Virus record (IMG/VR): IMGVR_UViG_3300045988_138996
Location: 1 to 64,000 of that record
Strand: one strand, 5' to 3'
Source: a virus
Length of the DNA: 64,000 nucleotides
Under the pieces are notes generated by a model that saw nothing but the letters and a program-made list of their open reading frames with translations, ran no database searches and was not told the DNA's origin. Shown one piece after another: positions 2,883 through 60,594 of this stretch (positions are counted from its first letter, which is position 1; every line of letters starts with the position of its first letter). Both the position numbers and the translations under genes were made by a program.

Positions 2883-3438
2883 AGATAATGACGGTGTTCG
2901 CATCGGTATTTTCGATAAAATGCTCGAAGAGCGAGTATTATTTATCGTAGGAGAGATTAATGATGAGTTGGCAAATTCTATCGTTGCCCATTTATTATAT
3001 CTTAATAGCAAAGATAGCCGTAAACCAATTACATTATATATTAATAGCCCTGGTGGTGTGATTACTTCTGGATTAGCTATTTATGATACGATGAAATTAG
3101 TTAAAGCACCAGTTCATACGATTGGTTATGGTATGTGTGCTAGTATGGCTAGTTTTTTATTAAGTATGGGCGATAAACGTAGTGTATTGCCTAATACATG
3201 TGTAATGATTCATCAGCCATTGGGTGGCGCACAAGGTCAACAAACTGAAATTGAAATCACTTATAAGCGAATTACGTCTCTTCGTGAAAAACTAGAAAAG
3301 ATGTATGCCGAAAAATCTAACGGCAAATCTTCTTATAAGCAAATTCACGAAGCTTGTGAACGCGATAACTATCTCGATGCTAAAGAAGCATTGGATATGG
3401 GTTTAGTCGATGAGATTATCGGAGGTGATGACGAATAA
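2869..3438 (+). CDS. clpP: ATP-dependent Clp protease proteolytic subunit ClpP
   Basis: ERVLFIVGEIND, SPGGVITSGLAIYDTM, catalytic Ser context GMCASMAS, IHQPLGG. Confidence 0.9.
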   Translation: MSVIKDNDGVRIGIFDKMLEERVLFIVGEINDELANSIVAHLLYLNSKDSRKPITLYINSPGGVITSGLAIYDTMKLVKAPVHTIGYGMCASMASFLLSMGDKRSVLPNTCVMIHQPLGGAQGQQTEIEITYKRITSLREKLEKMYAEKSNGKSSYKQIHEACERDNYLDAKEALDMGLVDEIIGGDDE

Positions 3439-5015: not shown

Positions 5016-5879
5016 ATGTACGATTTAGTATCTCTTACTGAAGCAGCTTTAATTATAGCTATCGATAAATTAGCTAATAATGCTGATAAATTAACAGTCG
5101 ATGAAATTAGATTGCTTCATGAAATGTATATTGCTGGTACTATCGAAAAACTTCAACAAAAATTTAAAGCTGCTGAAAAAGATGCTCAAGAATTCTTAGC
5201 TAAAGAAGAAGCTAATGAAACTACTGCATCTGAAATCGTAACGGCTAAGGAAGAAGTTAAAGAAGAAAAACCTAAAACTAAACGTGGTCGTCCTAAAGCT
5301 AAAGCTAAAGAAGAAGATGTACCGGTAACAGATTTCGAAGGTAATGTATTGCCTCCAGAAAAATTAGCTAAAGGTAGTGAAGATAAAGTTCACGATGAAG
5401 AACCAGCTTTCGTACCCAGTAAAGCAGAAGTTAAACCTGAAGTCGTTGTCGAAGAAGCTTCTGCAGCTGAAAAAGCAACAAAATCTTTAGAGTTTAACGA
5501 AGCTCAATTAGATTGTTATGTATCTGAATTTAAACGTGAAGAAACATTCGAATCTAATCCTGAAGCAAAAGCTAAACTTACGCCTCAACGTAAGAAAATT
5601 AATGCTTTCGTAAAAGAAGCCGAAGGCAATAAAGCAGTATTACGTAAATATTTCGATGAAATTTTAGACGACGCCGATAAAGGTATGTCGTTTAAAGAAA
5701 TTACGCCTTTCTATGTCGATAATTTAGCTCATTACTTAACATTACGTGAAGAATTAGCACGTTATAATGAAGATCAAATTGTCGAAAAAATGAAAGAAAT
5801 TTCCGGCGGAGTATTACACGATATCTCTCAATTGAATCGGTATAATATCGAAGCCATTTTAACAGTTCTTAAAGCATAA
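5016..5879 (+). CDS. hypothetical Lys/Glu-rich protein
   Basis: ORF track; RBS GGAGGA upstream. Confidence 0.5.
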   Translation: MYDLVSLTEAALIIAIDKLANNADKLTVDEIRLLHEMYIAGTIEKLQQKFKAAEKDAQEFLAKEEANETTASEIVTAKEEVKEEKPKTKRGRPKAKAKEEDVPVTDFEGNVLPPEKLAKGSEDKVHDEEPAFVPSKAEVKPEVVVEEASAAEKATKSLEFNEAQLDCYVSEFKREETFESNPEAKAKLTPQRKKINAFVKEAEGNKAVLRKYFDEILDDADKGMSFKEITPFYVDNLAHYLTLREELARYNEDQIVEKMKEISGGVLHDISQLNRYNIEAILTVLKA

Positions 5880-5935
5880 TATATGCTTAAGATATATATG
5901 TAAATAATTTTATTTAAGAAAAGGAGACAATTAAC

Positions 5936-6370
5936 ATGTCCATGAACAAATTGATTTTACAAGGTCGTATTCCTACAAGTGAAAAGTTTAGATTCGACGT
6001 TCGTTTCGGCGATGGCGAAAATGAACGTTCTTTTGCTAATTTCCAAATGTCTGTACGTCGTAATTGGAAACCAAAAGACGAACAATACTATCCAGAAGAT
6101 ATCTTTAATGTAGTAGCTTATGGTCCTAATGCTGACGTTATTGGCAAACACGTAAAACGTGGCGAAGAATTCTTGATTGCTTGTCATTTGCAAAATAGAA
6201 CGTACGAAGACAAGAATGGTAATACCGTATATACTAACGATATTATTGTCGACGAATTCTATTTTGAGGATCATCGTTCTGGTGGTAATAGCGAATCTAA
6301 TTTCGATAATTTCAGCGATGCACCAGCTAATAGTGCGACTGAAGATGACGACGACGTTCTCGATATCTAA
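5936..6370 (+). CDS. ssb: single-stranded DNA-binding protein
   Basis: OB-fold SSB pattern (LILQGRI.., FNVVAYG..A..I.KHVKRGEEF..) and an acidic tail DDDDVLDI. Confidence 0.85.
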   Translation: MSMNKLILQGRIPTSEKFRFDVRFGDGENERSFANFQMSVRRNWKPKDEQYYPEDIFNVVAYGPNADVIGKHVKRGEEFLIACHLQNRTYEDKNGNTVYTNDIIVDEFYFEDHRSGGNSESNFDNFSDAPANSATEDDDDVLDI

Positions 6371-6405
6371 TAATTGTTAAATTAGCCATCGTATGTTATA
6401 ATTAT

Positions 6406-6440
6406 AGTGGGTATACACAGTGTATGCCCACTATTTTTAT
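6406..6440 (+). terminator. intrinsic terminator after ssb
   Basis: 12-bp stem AGTGGGTATACA / TGTATGCCCACT (one G:U), 3-nt loop, then ATTTTT. Confidence 0.65.
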
Positions 6441-6459
6441 TATATTTGTGAGGTGGCTC

Positions 6460-6840
6460 ATGGACCAATTAGAGCATATCGATTCCCAGATACAAGACTG
6501 GGAGAAATTTTTTAAATTAGATAATGAACTTAGAAGTAATCTAAATCAAATTTCAGAATATGTCGGAGAGAAACTTGCTAAAGGTAAATTTGGTGAACCT
6601 ATTCAAGTCGAATTCGACGACAAAATATTTCAATTTGTATTTAGAGTCGGTACTTCTGGTTTACGTGGTCGTGTCGATTCTTATATCGCTAGTAGTAAAT
6701 TGTTAATTAAACCTAGAGGATTTAAAGCACAAGTTGATTTTAATCAAGACGTATCATTAGCCGAGACGATTGGCGAAACGGCTCGAGGTATTTTGTATCG
6801 TTACTATGATTTAATCGATGATGAAGATCACGTTTATTAG
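6460..6840 (+). CDS. hypothetical protein
   Basis: ORF track 6424..6840. That start lies in the terminator; ATG 6460 is preceded by GAGGTGG. Confidence 0.45.
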   Translation: MDQLEHIDSQIQDWEKFFKLDNELRSNLNQISEYVGEKLAKGKFGEPIQVEFDDKIFQFVFRVGTSGLRGRVDSYIASSKLLIKPRGFKAQVDFNQDVSLAETIGETARGILYRYYDLIDDEDHVY

Positions 6841-16504: not shown

Positions 16505-16680
16505 TAAATATAATGTATAAGTATGTACCGAAGGCTTATTCGGGAATTTACGACTGTGGAGTATACAAGAACTTGTGAGTAGCATATTTAATTTTATTAA
16601 ATTGCAAAAGCATATACGTTGAAGCAGTAAGTAAAAACTGTGAAGTTTTACAAGTCTCATTATAGATATGTGTCTATAAT
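16505..16680 (+). ncRNA. putative TnpB omega/reRNA scaffold and element right end (may begin inside the tnpB 3' end)
   Basis: ORF-free tail with hairpins CCGAA-GGCTTA-TTCGG and ATTATAGA-N6-TCTATAAT, in the expected position for a TnpB guide RNA. Confidence 0.4.
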
Positions 16681-50956: not shown

Positions 50957-51034
50957 GGCGGGGTAGTCCAAATGGCAGAGACACGAGTCTCATAAGCTCG
51001 TCTAGTGCAAGTTCGACTCTTGCCCCCGCACCCA
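50957..51034 (+). tRNA. tRNA with CAU anticodon (Met, or Ile if lysidine-modified); position 1:72 looks mismatched
   Basis: Hand fold: acceptor GGCGGGG/CCCCGCA, anticodon arm CGAGT-CTCATAA-GCTCG, T arm GCAAG-TTCGACT-CTTGC, encoded CCA. Confidence 0.6.
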
Positions 51035-51038
51035 ATAT

Positions 51039-51104
51039 TGCAGAGTAAAACAGCATGGAATTGGGTCCATGTCTGAAATGGTTTGACTCCATTCTCTGCG
51101 ACCA
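51039..51104 (+). ncRNA. aberrant 63-nt tRNA-like element (+CCA) with only three arms
   Basis: Acceptor TGCAGAG/CTCTGCG, T arm AATGG-TTTGACT-CCATT, discriminator A + CCA. Only one further hairpin is present (CATGG(A)-ATTGGG-(T)CCATG). Confidence 0.45.
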
Positions 51105-51105
51105 T

Positions 51106-51193
51106 GGAGAAGTGGCCGAGTGGATTAAGGCTACAGTCTTGAAAACTGTCGTACGGAAACGTACCGTGAGTTCGAATCTCACCTTCTCCTCCA
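51106..51193 (+). tRNA. tRNA-Ser (UGA)
   Basis: Acceptor GGAGAAG/CTTCTCC, anticodon loop CTTGAAA, long variable arm GTACGGAAACGTAC, T arm GTGAG-TTCGAAT-CTCAC, CCA. Confidence 0.85.
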
Positions 51194-51200
51194 TATATAT

Positions 51201-51285
51201 GTACAGGTGGCCGAGTGGTTAAAGGCAGCAGACTGTAAATCTGCCGACATTGTCTATGTTGGTTCAAATCCAACCCTGTGCACCA
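51201..51285 (+). tRNA. tRNA-Tyr (GUA)
   Basis: Acceptor GTACAGG/CCTGTGC, anticodon arm GCAGA-CTGTAAA-TCTGC, long variable arm, T arm GTTGG-TTCAAAT-CCAAC, CCA. Confidence 0.85.
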
Positions 51286-51289
51286 GTAT

Positions 51290-51366
51290 GGTTCCATGGA
51301 GTAATTGGTCATCTCGTCACCCTGTCAAGGTGAAGATTACGGGTTCAAATCCCGTTGAAACCGCCA
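51290..51366 (+). tRNA. tRNA-Asp (GUC)
   Basis: Acceptor GGTTCCA/TGAAACC (one mismatch), anticodon arm TCACC-CTGTCAA-GGTGA, T arm ACGGG-TTCAAAT-CCCGT, CCA. Confidence 0.8.
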
Positions 51367-51368
51367 GT

Positions 51369-51421
51369 ATCCTAACATAGAATTTTTTCTGATTATCTGT
51401 ATTCTGTGTTAGGATTTTTTT
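51369..51421 (+). terminator. long hairpin + T7 inside the tRNA cluster
   Basis: ATCCTAACA/TGTTAGGAT plus AGAAT/ATTCT helices, followed by TTTTTTT. Confidence 0.55.
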
Positions 51422-51425
51422 ACTT

Positions 51426-51503
51426 ACTCCTGTAGCTTAGAGGCTAAGCACCCGGCTCATAACCGGGCATTTTACCCTGGTTCGAATCCAGGCGGGAGTA
51501 CCA
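51426..51503 (+). tRNA. second CAU-anticodon tRNA (Met/fMet/Ile2 undetermined), unusual 8-nt variable region
   Basis: Acceptor ACTCCTG/CGGGAGT, anticodon arm CCCGG-CTCATAA-CCGGG, T arm CCTGG-TTCGAAT-CCAGG, CCA. Confidence 0.65.
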
Positions 51504-56969: not shown

Positions 56970-57201
56970 TAACACATAACGGCCCATGTAAAACGATGTG
57001 AACTGTATCATAAAACAGGTGTCCCTTATGGGGCTAACGGTGAATCCTTAATGGCAATACCGTGCTAAGCGTATTATTACGACAGTGTAGAGACTATTGG
57101 TGATGAATGTAGCCAAGTAGAGTAGAGACGTGCTACTCGATGCGCATCGCATTTATTATTTAAATAAATGAAGAGATAGTCCAGCTTAATTAATTAAGTT
57201 G
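56970..57201 (+). ncRNA. ORF-less group I intron 1 in nrdD (232 nt)
   Basis: P1: exon AUGGGU pairs with intron GCCCAU (56982-87), with a G:U at the splice site. R/S-like cores GTAGAGACTAT (57086-96) and AGATAGTCC (57172-80). The intron ends in G57201. Confidence 0.8.
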
Positions 57202-58078
57202 TGTAGAAGTTTCCTATCAGTTTGGTATGATAAAGAAAATAATCCTATTATAGATGGACGCTTTAATAAAGGTGTTGTAACATTAAATCTCCCTCAATGT
57301 GCTATTGTTGCAGATGGAGATATTAACAAGTTTTGGAAATTATTAGATGAGCGTTTGGAATTATGTCATAAAGCTCTTAAGTTCAAAACGGAAAGACTAC
57401 TCGGTGTAAAAGCTTCTGTTGCTCCAACATTATGGATGTATGGTGCTTATGCTAGAAAAAATGCTGATGATATATTAGATGATTTAATGGTTGGTGGCTA
57501 TTCTACATTAAGTTTAGGCTATATTGGTTTATATGAAACTATTAAATTATTAACAGGCGAATCTAATACTAAACATCAAAATTTAGCATTAAAAATTACT
57601 CGATATATGGCAGATAAATGTGAAGAGTGGAATAATCAAGAAAATTATGGTTATTCTTTGTATAGCACTCCTGCCGAAAGTTTGTGCTATAGATTTGCTA
57701 AATTAGATAAAGAACAATTCGGTGAAATTAAAGATGTTACTGATAAAGGCTATTATACTAACTCGCATCACGTTGATGTGAGAGAAAATATTAACATATT
57801 TGATAAGATAGATTTTGAAGCGCCTTTCCAAGAAAATGCTACTGGTGGATTTATTGGTTATGGCGAAATTCCTAATATGACGAATAACATTGAAGCATTA
57901 GAAACTATTATTCAATATATTTATGACCATGCTATGTATTGGGAATTTAATACTAAACTTGACCATTGTATGAAATGTGGCTTTGATGGCGAAATTTTGC
58001 CTGATGGTCATGGTGATTGGATTTGTCCTAAATGCGGAAACCAAGATCATAATACATTAAAAGTTATTCGAAGAACGT
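57202..58078 (+). CDS. nrdD: NrdD, exon 2
   Basis: Begins CRSFLSVWYD..; contains the C-terminal zinc site CMKCG..CPKCG; ends ..VIRRT plus the first nt of the Cys codon. Confidence 0.9.
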
Positions 58079-58336
58079 AGACATACATGCGTTCTATAAA
58101 CAACCTATATGCGGGAAGTCCCTTAGAGCTTTAATTACTAAGCTATTGACAAAAGAAAATAGTGGCAAGAATAATTACCTTGGTATAGTAAAAAGATTAA
58201 AGATTGGGTAATCCGCAGGGAAGCACCGTATAGGTGAACCCTCAGAGACTACCATGGTTGGCAATTTATTGTATGGTATAGTCCAGGCCGTCTACATATG
58301 TAGAGTTAAAGTACTAGGAAACTAGCGGTATTGCGG
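58079..58336 (+). ncRNA. ORF-less group I intron 2 in nrdD (258 nt)
   Basis: P1: exon AGAACGU pairs perfectly with intron GCGTTCT (58089-95), with a G:U at the splice site. R/S-like cores TCAGAGACTAC (58251-61) and ATAGTCC (58287-93). The intron ends in G58336. Confidence 0.8.
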
Positions 58337-58410
58337 GTGGCTACCTCGGAGATAACTTCTGGAATGAAGGTCGTACTAAAGAAATTCAGTCCAGAGTTCT
58401 TCATATTTAA
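58337..58410 (+). CDS. nrdD: NrdD, exon 3 (glycyl-radical tail)
   Basis: Splicing gives RRT-C-GYLGDNFWNEGRTKEIQSRVLHI*, the canonical RxCGY glycyl radical motif. Confidence 0.85.
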
Positions 58411-58417
58411 TAATTAA

Positions 58418-58470
58418 TAGGCATAAAATAGTTCCTTTGATTTTTGGAAAGTATCTTTACTATTCGCCTA
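58418..58470 (+). repeat. structured repeat copy 1 (R1)
   Basis: TAGGC..GCCTA and AATAGT/ACTATT helices separated by an ATAA/C internal loop; conserved AGTTCCTTT. Confidence 0.65.
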
Positions 58471-58505
58471 TTGATTTTAATTTAATAATATAATATAATA
58501 ATTGT

Positions 58506-58564
58506 AAGGCATAAAAAAGTTCCTTTTATAATATTGGATGAAGAATAACTTTACTTTTCGCCTT
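58506..58564 (+). repeat. structured repeat copy 2 (R2)
   Basis: AAGGC..GCCTT and AAAAGT/ACTTTT helices with the same ATAA/C internal loop. Confidence 0.65.
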
Positions 58565-58575
58565 ATAATATAAAA

Positions 58576-58637
58576 TCTAGACATAAGGAAGTTCCTTTTA
58601 AAAAGACTGATTATTTTTTTGTTACTTCTCGTCTAGA
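58576..58637 (+). repeat. structured repeat copy 3 (R3)
   Basis: TCTAGAC..GTCTAGA and GGAAGT/ACTTCT helices with the same ATAA/C internal loop. Confidence 0.65.
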
Positions 58638-58648
58638 TATTGCTTATT

Positions 58649-58685
58649 AAGGCTACGTATATTTTGTACGTAGCCTTTTATTATT
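58649..58685 (+). terminator. intrinsic terminator after the repeat triplet
   Basis: GGCTACGTA / TACGTAGCC 9-bp stem followed by TTTTATTATTTT. Confidence 0.7.
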
Positions 58686-58698
58686 TTAAGAAAGGATA

Positions 58699-60594
58699 AT
58701 GATCATGGATGATATTCTAGAACTACAGAAATCCGTTCTATATTTATTTAAATCTGTATTGCCTATCGAAACAAAAGCTAAGTGTAACTATTTAGATTTG
58801 TTATTAGAAGGCGTGTATATTATGCCGGAAGCCAGACAATATCTTGATGAAAGATTAAAAAGCTTCTGTACTAGAGAATTTGGTAATAATGTAGTTCATT
58901 ATAATAGAGCGACATTGTTCGAATCATTTAAAGATGTTGATCGAGCAAATGTCGAACGATTATTAGTCGACCAGTTAGATCATTATCTTTCTGTATATAC
59001 GCAAACAGAAGAAACGTCTAGCAAGCCTATTAACAGTTCTTTAGTATACGTTCCAGTTAAAAGTGAAACATATGAATGTGAACCTTTTATCTTTAATACA
59101 ACAGTGATCTCTATTATTACTGAAGAAGAATTAATTAAGCGCGCTACAGATTTGCTTTCTTCTGGTATTGCGTTAAATTCAGCTACACAAGAAAGTTTAA
59201 TTAATATCTTTAAAGCTTATAAAGATAAGTTCGATATTAATACTATTAAAAATAAAGAATTCTTAATGTATGTTTGTAAAGAATTAAATTTAGTACCTAA
59301 GAAAGCTGAACAATTATTACGTTATTGTGTATATAGAATGACATCTAGTCCAATGATTATTAATAGTGCTAGAGAACGCAAACATTTATATACATTAGTA
59401 TATTCTTATACAACTACTATTAATAGAATATTAAGGCAATATGTCGAAGAAAATGGCGTCGAACCTATTGCTCGACAATTTAATAGATATCGTAAGTTAT
59501 GGATTATTTTAAAACATGCTGGTAAAGATGCTGCTACTATTATTAATAGAGCTAGAAAATTATCCAACAAGTTGAATTGTCCTCATAAACTTCAAGTATT
59601 AGATCGTATTAACGATAAAAATATCGATATCGAAGACGTTAAGAAAGAACTTGAAAAAGTTACGATATTTAAAAAGTTTTCTTTATTGAATGCTATTTAT
59701 AACGCTAAGTCTAATGATAAGATGTATATTATTCGTAATGGTCATACATATTCTACGACTAAAGAACATACGTCAAAAGCATCGTTTAAAGTTAAGAATT
59801 TAATCTTTAATTCTATTAAAAAAGATATCGGTAAGAATATTAAAGGTAAACGTTTCTATATTCCAGAAGGAATTATGTATGCGGTACCGACAAGTCAAAA
59901 GAATTTTATCGATAATATTCCGATATATACTCGATATAAAATGGATAAGAATTCTATTATCGGTATTCATTGGACAAATTCTGAAGATGGACGTGTCGAC
60001 TTAGATTTACATTATACATCTAAGAATATCCATATTGGTTGGAATAGTCGTTTTGATTCTAAAGAAAATATTCTTTATACTGGTGACTTAACTGATGCAC
60101 CAACCCCTAAAGGTGCTACCGAAGCTTTTTATATTAAAGATACTTTAAAAAATGACTTCGGTATGATTAGTGTTAATAATTATTCTGGAAATCCAGGCTT
60201 GTTCGAACTATTTATCGGCGCCGATCCTGATAAAAAAATCTATGATCGTAACGGTATTATAAATGCTGAAAATTTAGCATTTAAATTCACTGGATTATCT
60301 ATGAATGACGATAATGAAAAATGCTTTGGCATTATTGATTCACAAGAAAATTCTCGTGAATTTATTTTTGTCGATAGTTCATCTGGATTTGATCGAGTAC
60401 CTGCATATAGCGCTCAAAAAGAAGTTATGCTTAGCGCAATTAGATCGATGGCTAAAAATCGATTATATCTTAATGAATTAATCGAAAAGCTTGGCGGCGA
60501 AGTTGTATTAGATAAAGAATCGGCTGACTATGATTTATCAATTAATAATCTTGTCAAAGATTCATTTAATTTCTTGTTTAAGGCTGATGTTTAA
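58699..60594 (+). CDS. large hypothetical protein with TerD-like C-terminal region
   Basis: IGIHWTN..GRVDLDLHYT..IGWNS..YTGDLTDAP..GATEAFYI resembles the TerD layout (GW..DLD..GD...E). Confidence 0.4.
   Translation: MIMDDILELQKSVLYLFKSVLPIETKAKCNYLDLLLEGVYIMPEARQYLDERLKSFCTREFGNNVVHYNRATLFESFKDVDRANVERLLVDQLDHYLSVYTQTEETSSKPINSSLVYVPVKSETYECEPFIFNTTVISIITEEELIKRATDLLSSGIALNSATQESLINIFKAYKDKFDINTIKNKEFLMYVCKELNLVPKKAEQLLRYCVYRMTSSPMIINSARERKHLYTLVYSYTTTINRILRQYVEENGVEPIARQFNRYRKLWIILKHAGKDAATIINRARKLSNKLNCPHKLQVLDRINDKNIDIEDVKKELEKVTIFKKFSLLNAIYNAKSNDKMYIIRNGHTYSTTKEHTSKASFKVKNLIFNSIKKDIGKNIKGKRFYIPEGIMYAVPTSQKNFIDNIPIYTRYKMDKNSIIGIHWTNSEDGRVDLDLHYTSKNIHIGWNSRFDSKENILYTGDLTDAPTPKGATEAFYIKDTLKNDFGMISVNNYSGNPGLFELFIGADPDKKIYDRNGIINAENLAFKFTGLSMNDDNEKCFGIIDSQENSREFIFVDSSSGFDRVPAYSAQKEVMLSAIRSMAKNRLYLNELIEKLGGEVVLDKESADYDLSINNLVKDSFNFLFKADV

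Follow-up and report, generated by a model that had tools for sequence, protein, structure and literature searches.

Directly after the nrdD gene of a viral genome, three similar hairpins stand in tandem, and the question they raise is what kind of element they are and to which neighbouring gene they belong. The sequence is IMG/VR record IMGVR_UViG_3300045988_138996, of which positions 1 to 64,000, here called the window, were analysed as a whole. A sequence-only reading of the window had placed the array in the 3′ untranslated region (UTR) of nrdD and asked whether it represents a new family of small structured RNAs. We find that the hairpins are a new RNA family, selected for a bulged-hairpin structure, and that the motif has been inherited with one protein family, that of the gene downstream, from cyanophages to large low-GC metagenomic phages. 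The hairpins and the downstream gene probably form a conserved two-component unit, in which RNA and protein work as a pair.

The three hairpins described in the window (copies R1, R2 and R3; Table 1) are present on the plus strand and fold as had been described, the predicted fold of each copy being the structure drawn for it (z-scores of −2.2 to −2.7). They share one plan. An outer helix of at least 7 bp, P1, is followed by an internal loop with AUAA on the 5′ side and a single C opposite, then by an inner helix of 6 bp, P2, that ends in AGU/ACU, a UCCUUU box, a variable stretch and UU. The outer parts of P1 are wholly different among the copies (AAUAGGC, GUAAGGC and UCUAGAC) and the pairing is kept; in R3, P1 is UCUAGAC/GUCUAGA (58576-58582/58631-58637). 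Compensatory differences among the three copies had been reported correctly, and the homologues extend them. Exact matches to the 17-nucleotide (nt) box CATAANNNAGTTCCTTT number three in the 64-kb window, all of them within the array, and AGTTCCTTT occurs four times against 0.67 expected. When the covariance model of the wider family was run over the window with filters off, the three copies alone were returned, at 53-70 bits, and the next-best match scored 13.5 bits (E = 0.42). No scattered copies were found that would mark a dispersed repeat, such as a repetitive extragenic palindrome (REP) or a miniature inverted-repeat transposable element (MITE); the window has a single locus, as does each IMG/VR contig with the motif, and we conclude that there is one array per genome. 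No U tract follows the window copies, as it would a generic terminator hairpin.

When the exact structured pattern was searched for, 32 IMG/VR contigs of 12-236 kb were returned, each with one locus of one to three tandem matches. One locus, L014 (fetched loci carry L numbers), had one pattern match, and its second copy was found later by the covariance model. Further members came from the loci of distant homologues of the downstream protein, from a relaxed pattern scan, from a metagenome scan and from cultured phages. The relaxed single-copy DNA pattern returned mostly chance matches, which were removed by a pairing requirement and the covariance model. A collection of 185,579 bacterial and archaeal species genomes (one each) contained one true match, in a phage-like contig of a rumen metagenome-assembled genome (MAG). 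Arrays hold one to six copies across the family, and many loci are near-identical relatives.

In a MAFFT alignment of 23 hand-picked seed sequences, pairing is intact in 96% of pair cells, and both sides change at 11 of the 13 pairs; the paired fraction drops to 34-50% when the 3′ partner is slid by 1-3 columns. The covariance-model alignment of 71 distinct sequences, which is biased towards the model's structure and with which the independent MAFFT alignment agrees, has 90.6% of pair cells paired, against 68% in shuffles and 34-41% in slid alignments. Compensatory changes are found at 11/13 pairs in this alignment (6/7 in P1 and 5/6 in P2), and the observed covariation score was reached by none of 500 shuffles. 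Homologues beyond the window, for which the sequence-only reading had proposed a covariance-model search, were found, and they keep the pairing. No family in Rfam 15 matches the three copies, either at the gathering score or at E ≤ 10, and the related loci returned only tRNA, transfer-messenger RNA (tmRNA) and one sub-threshold YrlA match, in Synechococcus phage S-CRM01. Near relatives were not found among deposited phages. We found no description of the hairpin motif in the literature, and it is absent from the first 200 of the 408 supplementary files of Fremin and Bhatt 2021. With strong covariation and no Rfam match, the suggestion of a new small structured-RNA family is upheld.

The family consensus is ..gC AUAA NNNNGU UCCUnU ... 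UU ACNNNN c Gc.., in which the 5′ and 3′ ends form a P1 of 7 bp, AUAA lies opposite one bulged nucleotide, usually C, and the 6 bp of P2 end in a G-C and a U-A pair. The apical region is open and A-rich, begins with UCCUnU, ends with UU and is 26-73 nt long, with whole hairpins inserted in several members. The conserved bases are asymmetric unpaired ones, in the internal loop and at the base of the open loop. Two statements about invariance change when the family is considered. The AUAA loop and bulged C, invariant in the window copies, are nearly so in the family, where AAAA and AUA occur and the bulge can be G or A. The box proposed as invariant, AGUUCCUUU, gives way to GUUCCU, and the AGU/ACU of P2 varies with compensation in the homologues (CGU/ACG, UGU/ACA and ACU/AGU). 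A third helix, P3 (UCC/GGA), was considered and rejected as a general feature: GGA is enriched apically (31/71 against 12 expected) yet absent in over half of the sequences, and the helix is facultative. One subtype (L054, L056, L070, L071 and related loci; e.g. L054 456-600) has a second copy with an apical hairpin insert of approximately 50 nt and UCCU/AGGA pairing, which was missed by the covariance model and seen by eye.

Downstream of 88 of the 102 arrays in the fetched loci, a homologue of the protein encoded after the window array, here called the partner protein, is found on the same strand within 600 nt, at a median gap of 83 nt. The remaining 14 arrays comprise nine with too little flank, four without a homologue in the sequence at hand (in one of these, L207, the start of a homologue is visible by eye) and one whose homologue is 2 kb away. 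Counted over arrays with enough flank, 88/93 lie within 600 nt upstream of a homologue, a figure that includes the redundancy of near-identical relatives. Ten loci sampled by protein alone (24-38% identity) are free of this redundancy, and nine have the motif upstream of the homologue (L033, L034, L036, L040, L042 and L247-L250); the tenth, L038/L039, has a TnpB-like gene (OrfB_IS605) nearby. In L014, L033, L034, L040 and L247-L250, the motif precedes a homologue of the downstream gene with no nrdD in the vicinity, and the link to nrdD proposed earlier is therefore not upheld.

The usual order of elements is a sigma70-like promoter, one to three copies, an intrinsic terminator, a Shine-Dalgarno (SD) sequence and the gene. 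In relatives (groups B, D and others), the first copy begins 6-8 nt past a TTGCAA- or TTGACA-17-TATAAT promoter, and in the window the promoter lies between R1 and R2, with its −10 hexamer ending 3-7 nt before R2. Because of these promoter positions, most of the array is the 5′ portion of the downstream gene's transcription unit, and we conclude that it is usually the promoter-proximal part of that unit. R1, upstream of the internal promoter, is the only copy that is nrdD 3′-UTR sequence, and not all three as had been thought. The strong terminator reported after the array is the sole terminator-like site in 58000-58800, and nearly all subtypes have a terminator at the same place. There is no room for a separate promoter between the terminator and the downstream gene. 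TAGATA-18-TATATT (58634-58663, plus strand) is a weak promoter-like match (9/12) whose −10 hexamer falls within the terminator loop; were it a genuine promoter, transcription from it would begin in the 3′ half of the terminator and so escape termination.

Table 1. Features of the hairpin locus in the 64,000-nt window
Feature	Position	Strand	Details
Last nrdD exon (CGYLGDNFW...VLHI, glycyl-radical motif)	58337..58410	+	ends 58407, then double stop
Array of three hairpins	58414-58639	+	each approximately 60 nt
Copy R1	58414..58474 (core 58418-58470)	+	covariance model 53-63 bits
Sigma70-like promoter TTGATT-17-TATAAT	58471-58499	+	10/12 consensus match only
Copy R2	58502..58568 (core 58506-58564)	+	covariance model 70-74 bits
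Copy R3	58574..58639 (core 58576-58637)	+	covariance model 58-66 bits
Intrinsic terminator	58649..58687	+	13-bp stem (5 G-C pairs) and 3-nt loop (58649-58677), U-rich tail
Shine-Dalgarno AAAGGA	58691..58696	+	8 nt before ATG 58705; read from sequence
Partner-protein gene (TerD-like)	58705-60594	+	629 aa from ATG 58705; start listed by the open reading frame (ORF) lister 58699

Sequence searches of Pfam, PHROGs and PDB with the partner protein returned no match, and NCBIfam returned a single 23-bit local match to a RING/TerD-type family. The AlphaFold model is confident (predicted local distance difference test score, pLDDT, 86.8; predicted template modelling score, pTM, 0.85) and is helical over approximately 340 residues, after which the C-terminal part is rich in beta structure. 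By this model the protein is predicted to have a helical domain at its N terminus and a TerD-like beta-sandwich as its C-terminal domain. When the model was used to query BFVD, full-length fold matches were returned to uncharacterised proteins of Campylobacter virus IBB35, a 'putative tellurium resistant like protein' and Lactobacillus phage LpeD, and the C-terminal domain matched TerD-like proteins. The only significant fold match in PDB was a full-length one, to 9a6r_B ('GLPD-SCP2'; E = 2.6e-4, template modelling score 0.53 on the target), which is an uninformative integrative model. Identity with Ro60 was considered and is not supported: there is no Pfam TROVE or vWA match and no PDB sequence match, and Ro60 is not among the 50 best fold matches listed for either the full-length or the N-terminal model. 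None of the 50 best matches listed for the N-terminal model reaches E ≤ 0.001. The partner-protein family is large: clustering at 50% identity leaves at least 1186 representatives with E ≤ 1e-30.

The neighbours of the partner gene vary, and include nrdD, tmk and nrdG (window and L042), dUTPase (L247 and L248) and tRNA genes. Near it in L034 (1-1996, 7473-8067) are NAPRTase and a PRPP-synthetase-like gene, an NAD-salvage pair, and a Pnkp/T4-type RNA ligase fusion, and in L250 (3526-4326) a Thg1-like gene. L245 (1-528) is also listed among the loci with RNA-repair or NAD-salvage neighbours. The surroundings in L034, L245 and L250 are an RNA-repair and counter-defence context.

Some arrays depart from the usual order. 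In phage Phass-1 (OQ749652, L245), the array follows the homologue on the same strand at a distance of 1.3 kb, and locus positions 5503-6620 contain a TTGACA-17-TATAAT promoter, a short GC-rich hairpin, six copies (5670-6142), a tmRNA and a terminator. The tmRNA (6147-6585; Rfam, 77.9 bits) starts 5 nt past the last copy. A coding sequence (CDS) for a hypothetical protein annotated over part of this array (locus 5681-5980) is probably spurious. L083 has a promoter, one copy, a terminator and tRNA genes, in that order, and no partner-protein homologue within 7 kb of locus sequence. Neither array has a downstream coding gene to regulate.

In S-CRM01 (NC_015569, L244), the homologue g174 lies inside a tRNA gene array, with at least four copies of the motif between tRNA-Glu and g174 and one more directly after g174. 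The apical region of one of these copies (L244 2107-2234) combines a T arm and a D arm with an acceptor-like stem that UUCG closes. This copy is a full-length match to Rfam YrlA, with 35.9 bits (E = 2.8e-6) where the gathering score is 69. An artefact of tandem tRNAs, as described for YrlA searches (PMC4201824), was considered and rejected, as the acceptor strands are complementary across a 4-nt loop. Another copy (L244 2381-2464) has a T-arm-like hairpin (GUAGGUUCGACUCCUAC) and then a closed stem. A small CDS on the opposite strand, g173c (locus 2285-2431), overlaps motif copies. Synechococcus phage S-CBWM1 has a weak divergent copy, recognised by eye (covariance-model E 0.68-5.7), 15 nt before the start codon of the homologue and with no terminator. 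The carriers also include a gut phage that uses genetic code 15.

We favour the reading that the hairpin is a cognate RNA handle of the TerD-like protein, as an operator and/or as the RNA partner in a ribonucleoprotein (RNP), and put its probability at roughly 0.45. A protein-binding handle is preferred to a metabolite pocket because the element is a simple bulged hairpin in one to six copies, with conserved loop bases and an open apical region that tolerates insertions, and because there is no antiterminator, arrays stand before non-coding genes and one member is modular and YrlA-like. The array would be transcribed from its own promoter, which in the window would cover R2 and R3, with R1 reached by read-through from nrdD. 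Most transcripts would end at the intrinsic terminator to give an abundant small RNA of approximately 180 nt with two or three handles, and polymerases that read through would produce the partner-protein mRNA. The protein would recognise the conserved handle, namely the internal loop and the GUUCCU box, and the RNA would act as an operator in feedback on the protein's own expression, as its RNP partner or as both, with the variable apical region left free or serving as a cargo module. In this scheme, the transcript ends, the protein binding and the regulatory outcome are what we infer.

Several observations weigh against this reading. The most divergent homologue sampled (P0073 in L038/L039, 24% identity) has no detectable motif at 2900-3001. 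The partner protein has no recognisable RNA-binding domain, and its N-terminal domain, modelled alone, found no PDB fold match (best E = 0.27, to generic helical repeats). TerD domains have been discussed as ligand sensors and proposed to respond to nucleoside-like signals (PMC7824862). The promoter and terminator are consensus matches only, and the layout of promoter, motif, terminator and promoterless gene would fit a cis-regulatory leader, riboswitch included, equally well. At two inner pairs G-U outnumbers A-C by 17 to 0, but over all pairs the numbers are 30 and 23, which leaves the strand undecided by counts. The plus-strand assignment rests mainly on context, with flanking promoters, terminators, tRNA genes and tmRNA genes on the same strand as the motif.

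The alternative that survives best, and which we nonetheless consider unlikely, is a tandem riboswitch. Each hairpin would be an aptamer for a metabolite or ion tied to the TerD-like function, and the ligand would set read-through of the terminator. The position is the classical one, between a promoter and an intrinsic terminator that is followed by an SD and a gene. The covarying domain in the 5′ leader has conserved unpaired nucleotides between its helices, the association with one gene is specific across very distant phages, and the sensor function proposed for TerD domains would suit a riboswitch. Tandem aptamers are known, in the glycine and guanidine-II riboswitches. However, nothing was found that competes with the terminator. 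In minimum-free-energy folds of 12 representative leaders the hairpins and terminator coexist, and in nine leaders ended before the 3′ half of the terminator, its 5′ half is free or in weak local pairs and has no conserved partner. Neither set contains a riboswitch-type expression platform. Further points against a riboswitch are arrays of up to six copies, arrays before a tmRNA (Phass-1) or tRNA genes (L083), and an open variable apical region with no closed pocket, junction or pseudoknot. If a riboswitch is nevertheless the answer, it would point to a signal sensed during infection.

Two candidate pairings in the leader were rejected. The 3′ strand of R2, GCCUUAUAA, could serve as an antiterminator by pairing with UUAUUAAGGC, the 5′ half of the terminator, and similar pairing is possible in L034 and L040, but folding shows no consistent competitor across subtypes. 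The UCCUUU box could act as an anti-SD, as it is complementary to AAAGGA in the window, but the SDs of relatives differ (GAGGAGG in L040, AAGGUG in L014 and GGAGGAA in L042), the box is UCCUAU in L034, and no pairing is conserved.

It is distinctly improbable, in our estimate, that the hairpins are free-standing small RNAs (sRNAs), processed from transcripts shared with tRNA or tmRNA, which act as decoys or sponges for a host RNA-binding or RNA-cleaving defence protein. The TerD-like gene would then be a functional neighbour, not a physical partner. The design, in which a single conserved loop box recurs in repeated hairpins, does resemble that of sponge RNAs, the copies abut the ends of tRNA or tmRNA genes in S-CRM01 and Phass-1, and the neighbours Pnkp/RNA ligase, Thg1 and NAPRTase belong to RNA repair and counter-defence. 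However, the host target would have to be conserved across very different phages. The carriers span low-GC metagenomic contigs, the rumen MAG contig, cultured cyanophages and the genetic-code-15 gut phage, with hosts established for the cyanophages only, and this reading does not account for why the motif almost always stands directly upstream of one gene and shares its transcription unit.

Processive antitermination of the put/nut type, in which the hairpins, by themselves or aided by a factor of the host or phage, would render the transcribing RNA polymerase resistant to the terminator that comes next, also finds little room. The hairpins do lie between a strong promoter, a few nt away, and a strong terminator, no antiterminator was found, the downstream gene is itself promoterless, and the arrangement resembles the general design of HK022 put RNA, which consists of paired stem-loops with conserved internal loops. 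On the other side, the motif has one site per genome, tied to one gene family and not to operon starts generally, the Phass-1 array has no terminator between it and the tmRNA, and the weak S-CBWM1 copy stands just before the start codon, also without a terminator. Antitermination would give no reason for co-evolution with a TerD-like protein unless that protein is the factor, in which case the explanation merges with the handle.

The comparative data contradict the two remaining explanations. A role as an nrdD 3′-UTR element, in mRNA stabilisation, processing or the supply of UTR-derived sRNAs, is very improbable: R1 does start one base past the double stop of nrdD, and in the phage group of the window the array sits between nrdD and the terminator, but in many loci the motif occurs without nrdD and tracks the downstream gene, and a promoter lies inside or ahead of the array. 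A DNA-level element (binding sites for a dimeric regulator, a replication origin or a recombination site) is hardly credible, as beyond the inverted repeats themselves and two P1 helices that are palindromic hexamers (TCTAGA and GCCGGC), the arm sequences change freely with complementarity kept, conservation falls on the asymmetric unpaired bases, 26-73 nt separate the arms, inner positions include G-U pairs, and the palindromes are not kept among variants.

The sequence-only reading had allowed for either RNA or DNA function. An RNA-level role is favoured because the arms vary with pairing kept, G-U is tolerated at the inner pairs and the flanking signals are on the same strand, and DNA binding sites are disfavoured by the lack of conserved half-sites. 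The palindromic P1 hexamers belong to the last copy in two subtypes (UCUAGA in the window; GCCGGC in L001, 9974-9979) and are probably due to chance, as variants such as UGUCGGC/GCCGACA are non-palindromic. A minus-strand reading, in which AAAGGAAC-N-UUAUG would be an SD and start codon, was rejected: the resulting mini-ORFs vary in length and sequence from one window copy to the next, L033 (loop AAAA) lacks the ATG, and the flanking signals and genes are all on the plus strand.

Other features of the window were recorded. The nrdD gene is in three pieces, separated by ORF-less intervening sequences at 56970-57201 (232 nt) and 58079-58336 (258 nt). Group I introns follow U and end in G, and both intervening sequences are preceded by U and end in G. 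Joining the pieces restores ...GPMG|CRSFLS... and ...RRT|CGYLG..., the latter in the glycyl-radical motif. Rfam intron models did not match the intervening sequences at E ≤ 10. A different nrdD interruption in the relative L015 contains a 243-aa endonuclease-like ORF, and nrdD is also split in L042. Rfam RAGATH-18 is matched over its whole length at 16553-16630 on the plus strand, with 75.6 bits where the gathering score is 44.9. A cluster of five tRNA genes at 50957-51500 on the plus strand precedes the array by approximately 7 kb, and tRNA arrays of other phages have the TerD-like gene and motif directly inside or beside them.

A well-supported structured-RNA family that is absent from Rfam 15 here joins the short list of phage-specific non-coding RNAs. 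It also provides a first functional handle on a very large unannotated phage protein family that extends from cyanophages to human-associated large phages. The cultured carriers, Synechococcus phages S-CRM01 and, more weakly, S-CBWM1, make the pairing of RNA and protein directly testable.

Among known systems, several share single aspects of this arrangement. The tandem riboswitches (guanidine-II/mini-ykkC and glycine) also place two or three small hairpin-like domains before an intrinsic terminator. Unlike them, the hairpins described here have no Rfam match, have loops of 26-73 nt and not ACGR tetraloops, lack an antiterminator and also stand in arrays before non-coding genes. HK022 put RNA and other processive antitermination RNAs likewise form promoter-proximal stem-loops with internal loops before terminators, whereas our element goes with one gene and has a single site in each genome. 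CsrB/RsmZ sponge RNAs resemble it in presenting the same short motif on repeated hairpins. They differ in that the conserved box here is UCCU, not GGA, and no Rfam match was obtained; the GGA found in 31/71 apical regions is only a facultative pairing partner of the UCCU box. Autogenous operators (T4 gene 32, regA and gene 43; lambda nutL before N) are leader hairpins of the gene for a binder, as would be the case here, and hairpin and gene are inherited together over long evolutionary distances. Here, however, binding is putative, the copies are tandem (1-6) and followed by a terminator, and the Phass-1 array lies apart from the gene. These operators are not known to resemble our hairpins in sequence or structure, a comparison for which no search was made, and for both the operators and the small tandem riboswitches the resemblance is in position only.

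The Y RNA/Ro60 pair appears to be the closest analogy in possible working, although its defining features fail here. The partner is TerD-like and not Ro60, as Pfam, PDB sequence and fold searches matched neither TROVE nor vWA. The Ro-binding motif, defined as GNCGAAN0-1G (PMC4201824), is absent from the hairpin consensus, as is GGUCCGA; the conserved bases are instead C-AUAA and GUUCCU. The window copies and most other members have no tRNA-like domain, and ordinary members have no YrlA match. The likenesses lie in the arrangement. Bacterial Y RNAs are encoded within 4 kb of the partner protein on the same strand (PMC4201824), and in both systems one to several non-coding RNAs lie beside the partner gene in this way (YrlA, RF02553, with Ro60/Rsr). 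In both, the stem that joins the two ends of the RNA bears conserved nucleotides in bulge and loop, and the distal module varies. In one S-CRM01 copy this module is a closed tRNA-like domain, giving the same design of a handle plus a tRNA-like module, and RNA-repair and tRNA genes are neighbours in both. By this analogy, the hairpins and the TerD-like protein might form a new phage RNP that works as Y RNA and Ro do from unrelated parts, in RNA surveillance or repair or in counter-defence during infection, a proposal that we regard as doubtful. Modular RNAs, each a handle with a variable and sometimes tRNA-like module, would be made in tandem beside tRNA or tmRNA genes and loaded onto a protein of approximately 630 aa with helical-repeat and TerD-like domains. 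If the RNP handle is real, it would be a Y-RNA-like system with a non-Ro protein, set among tRNA, tmRNA, RNA-repair and NAD-salvage genes, the kinds of loci now associated with the struggle between phages and host defences that target RNA.

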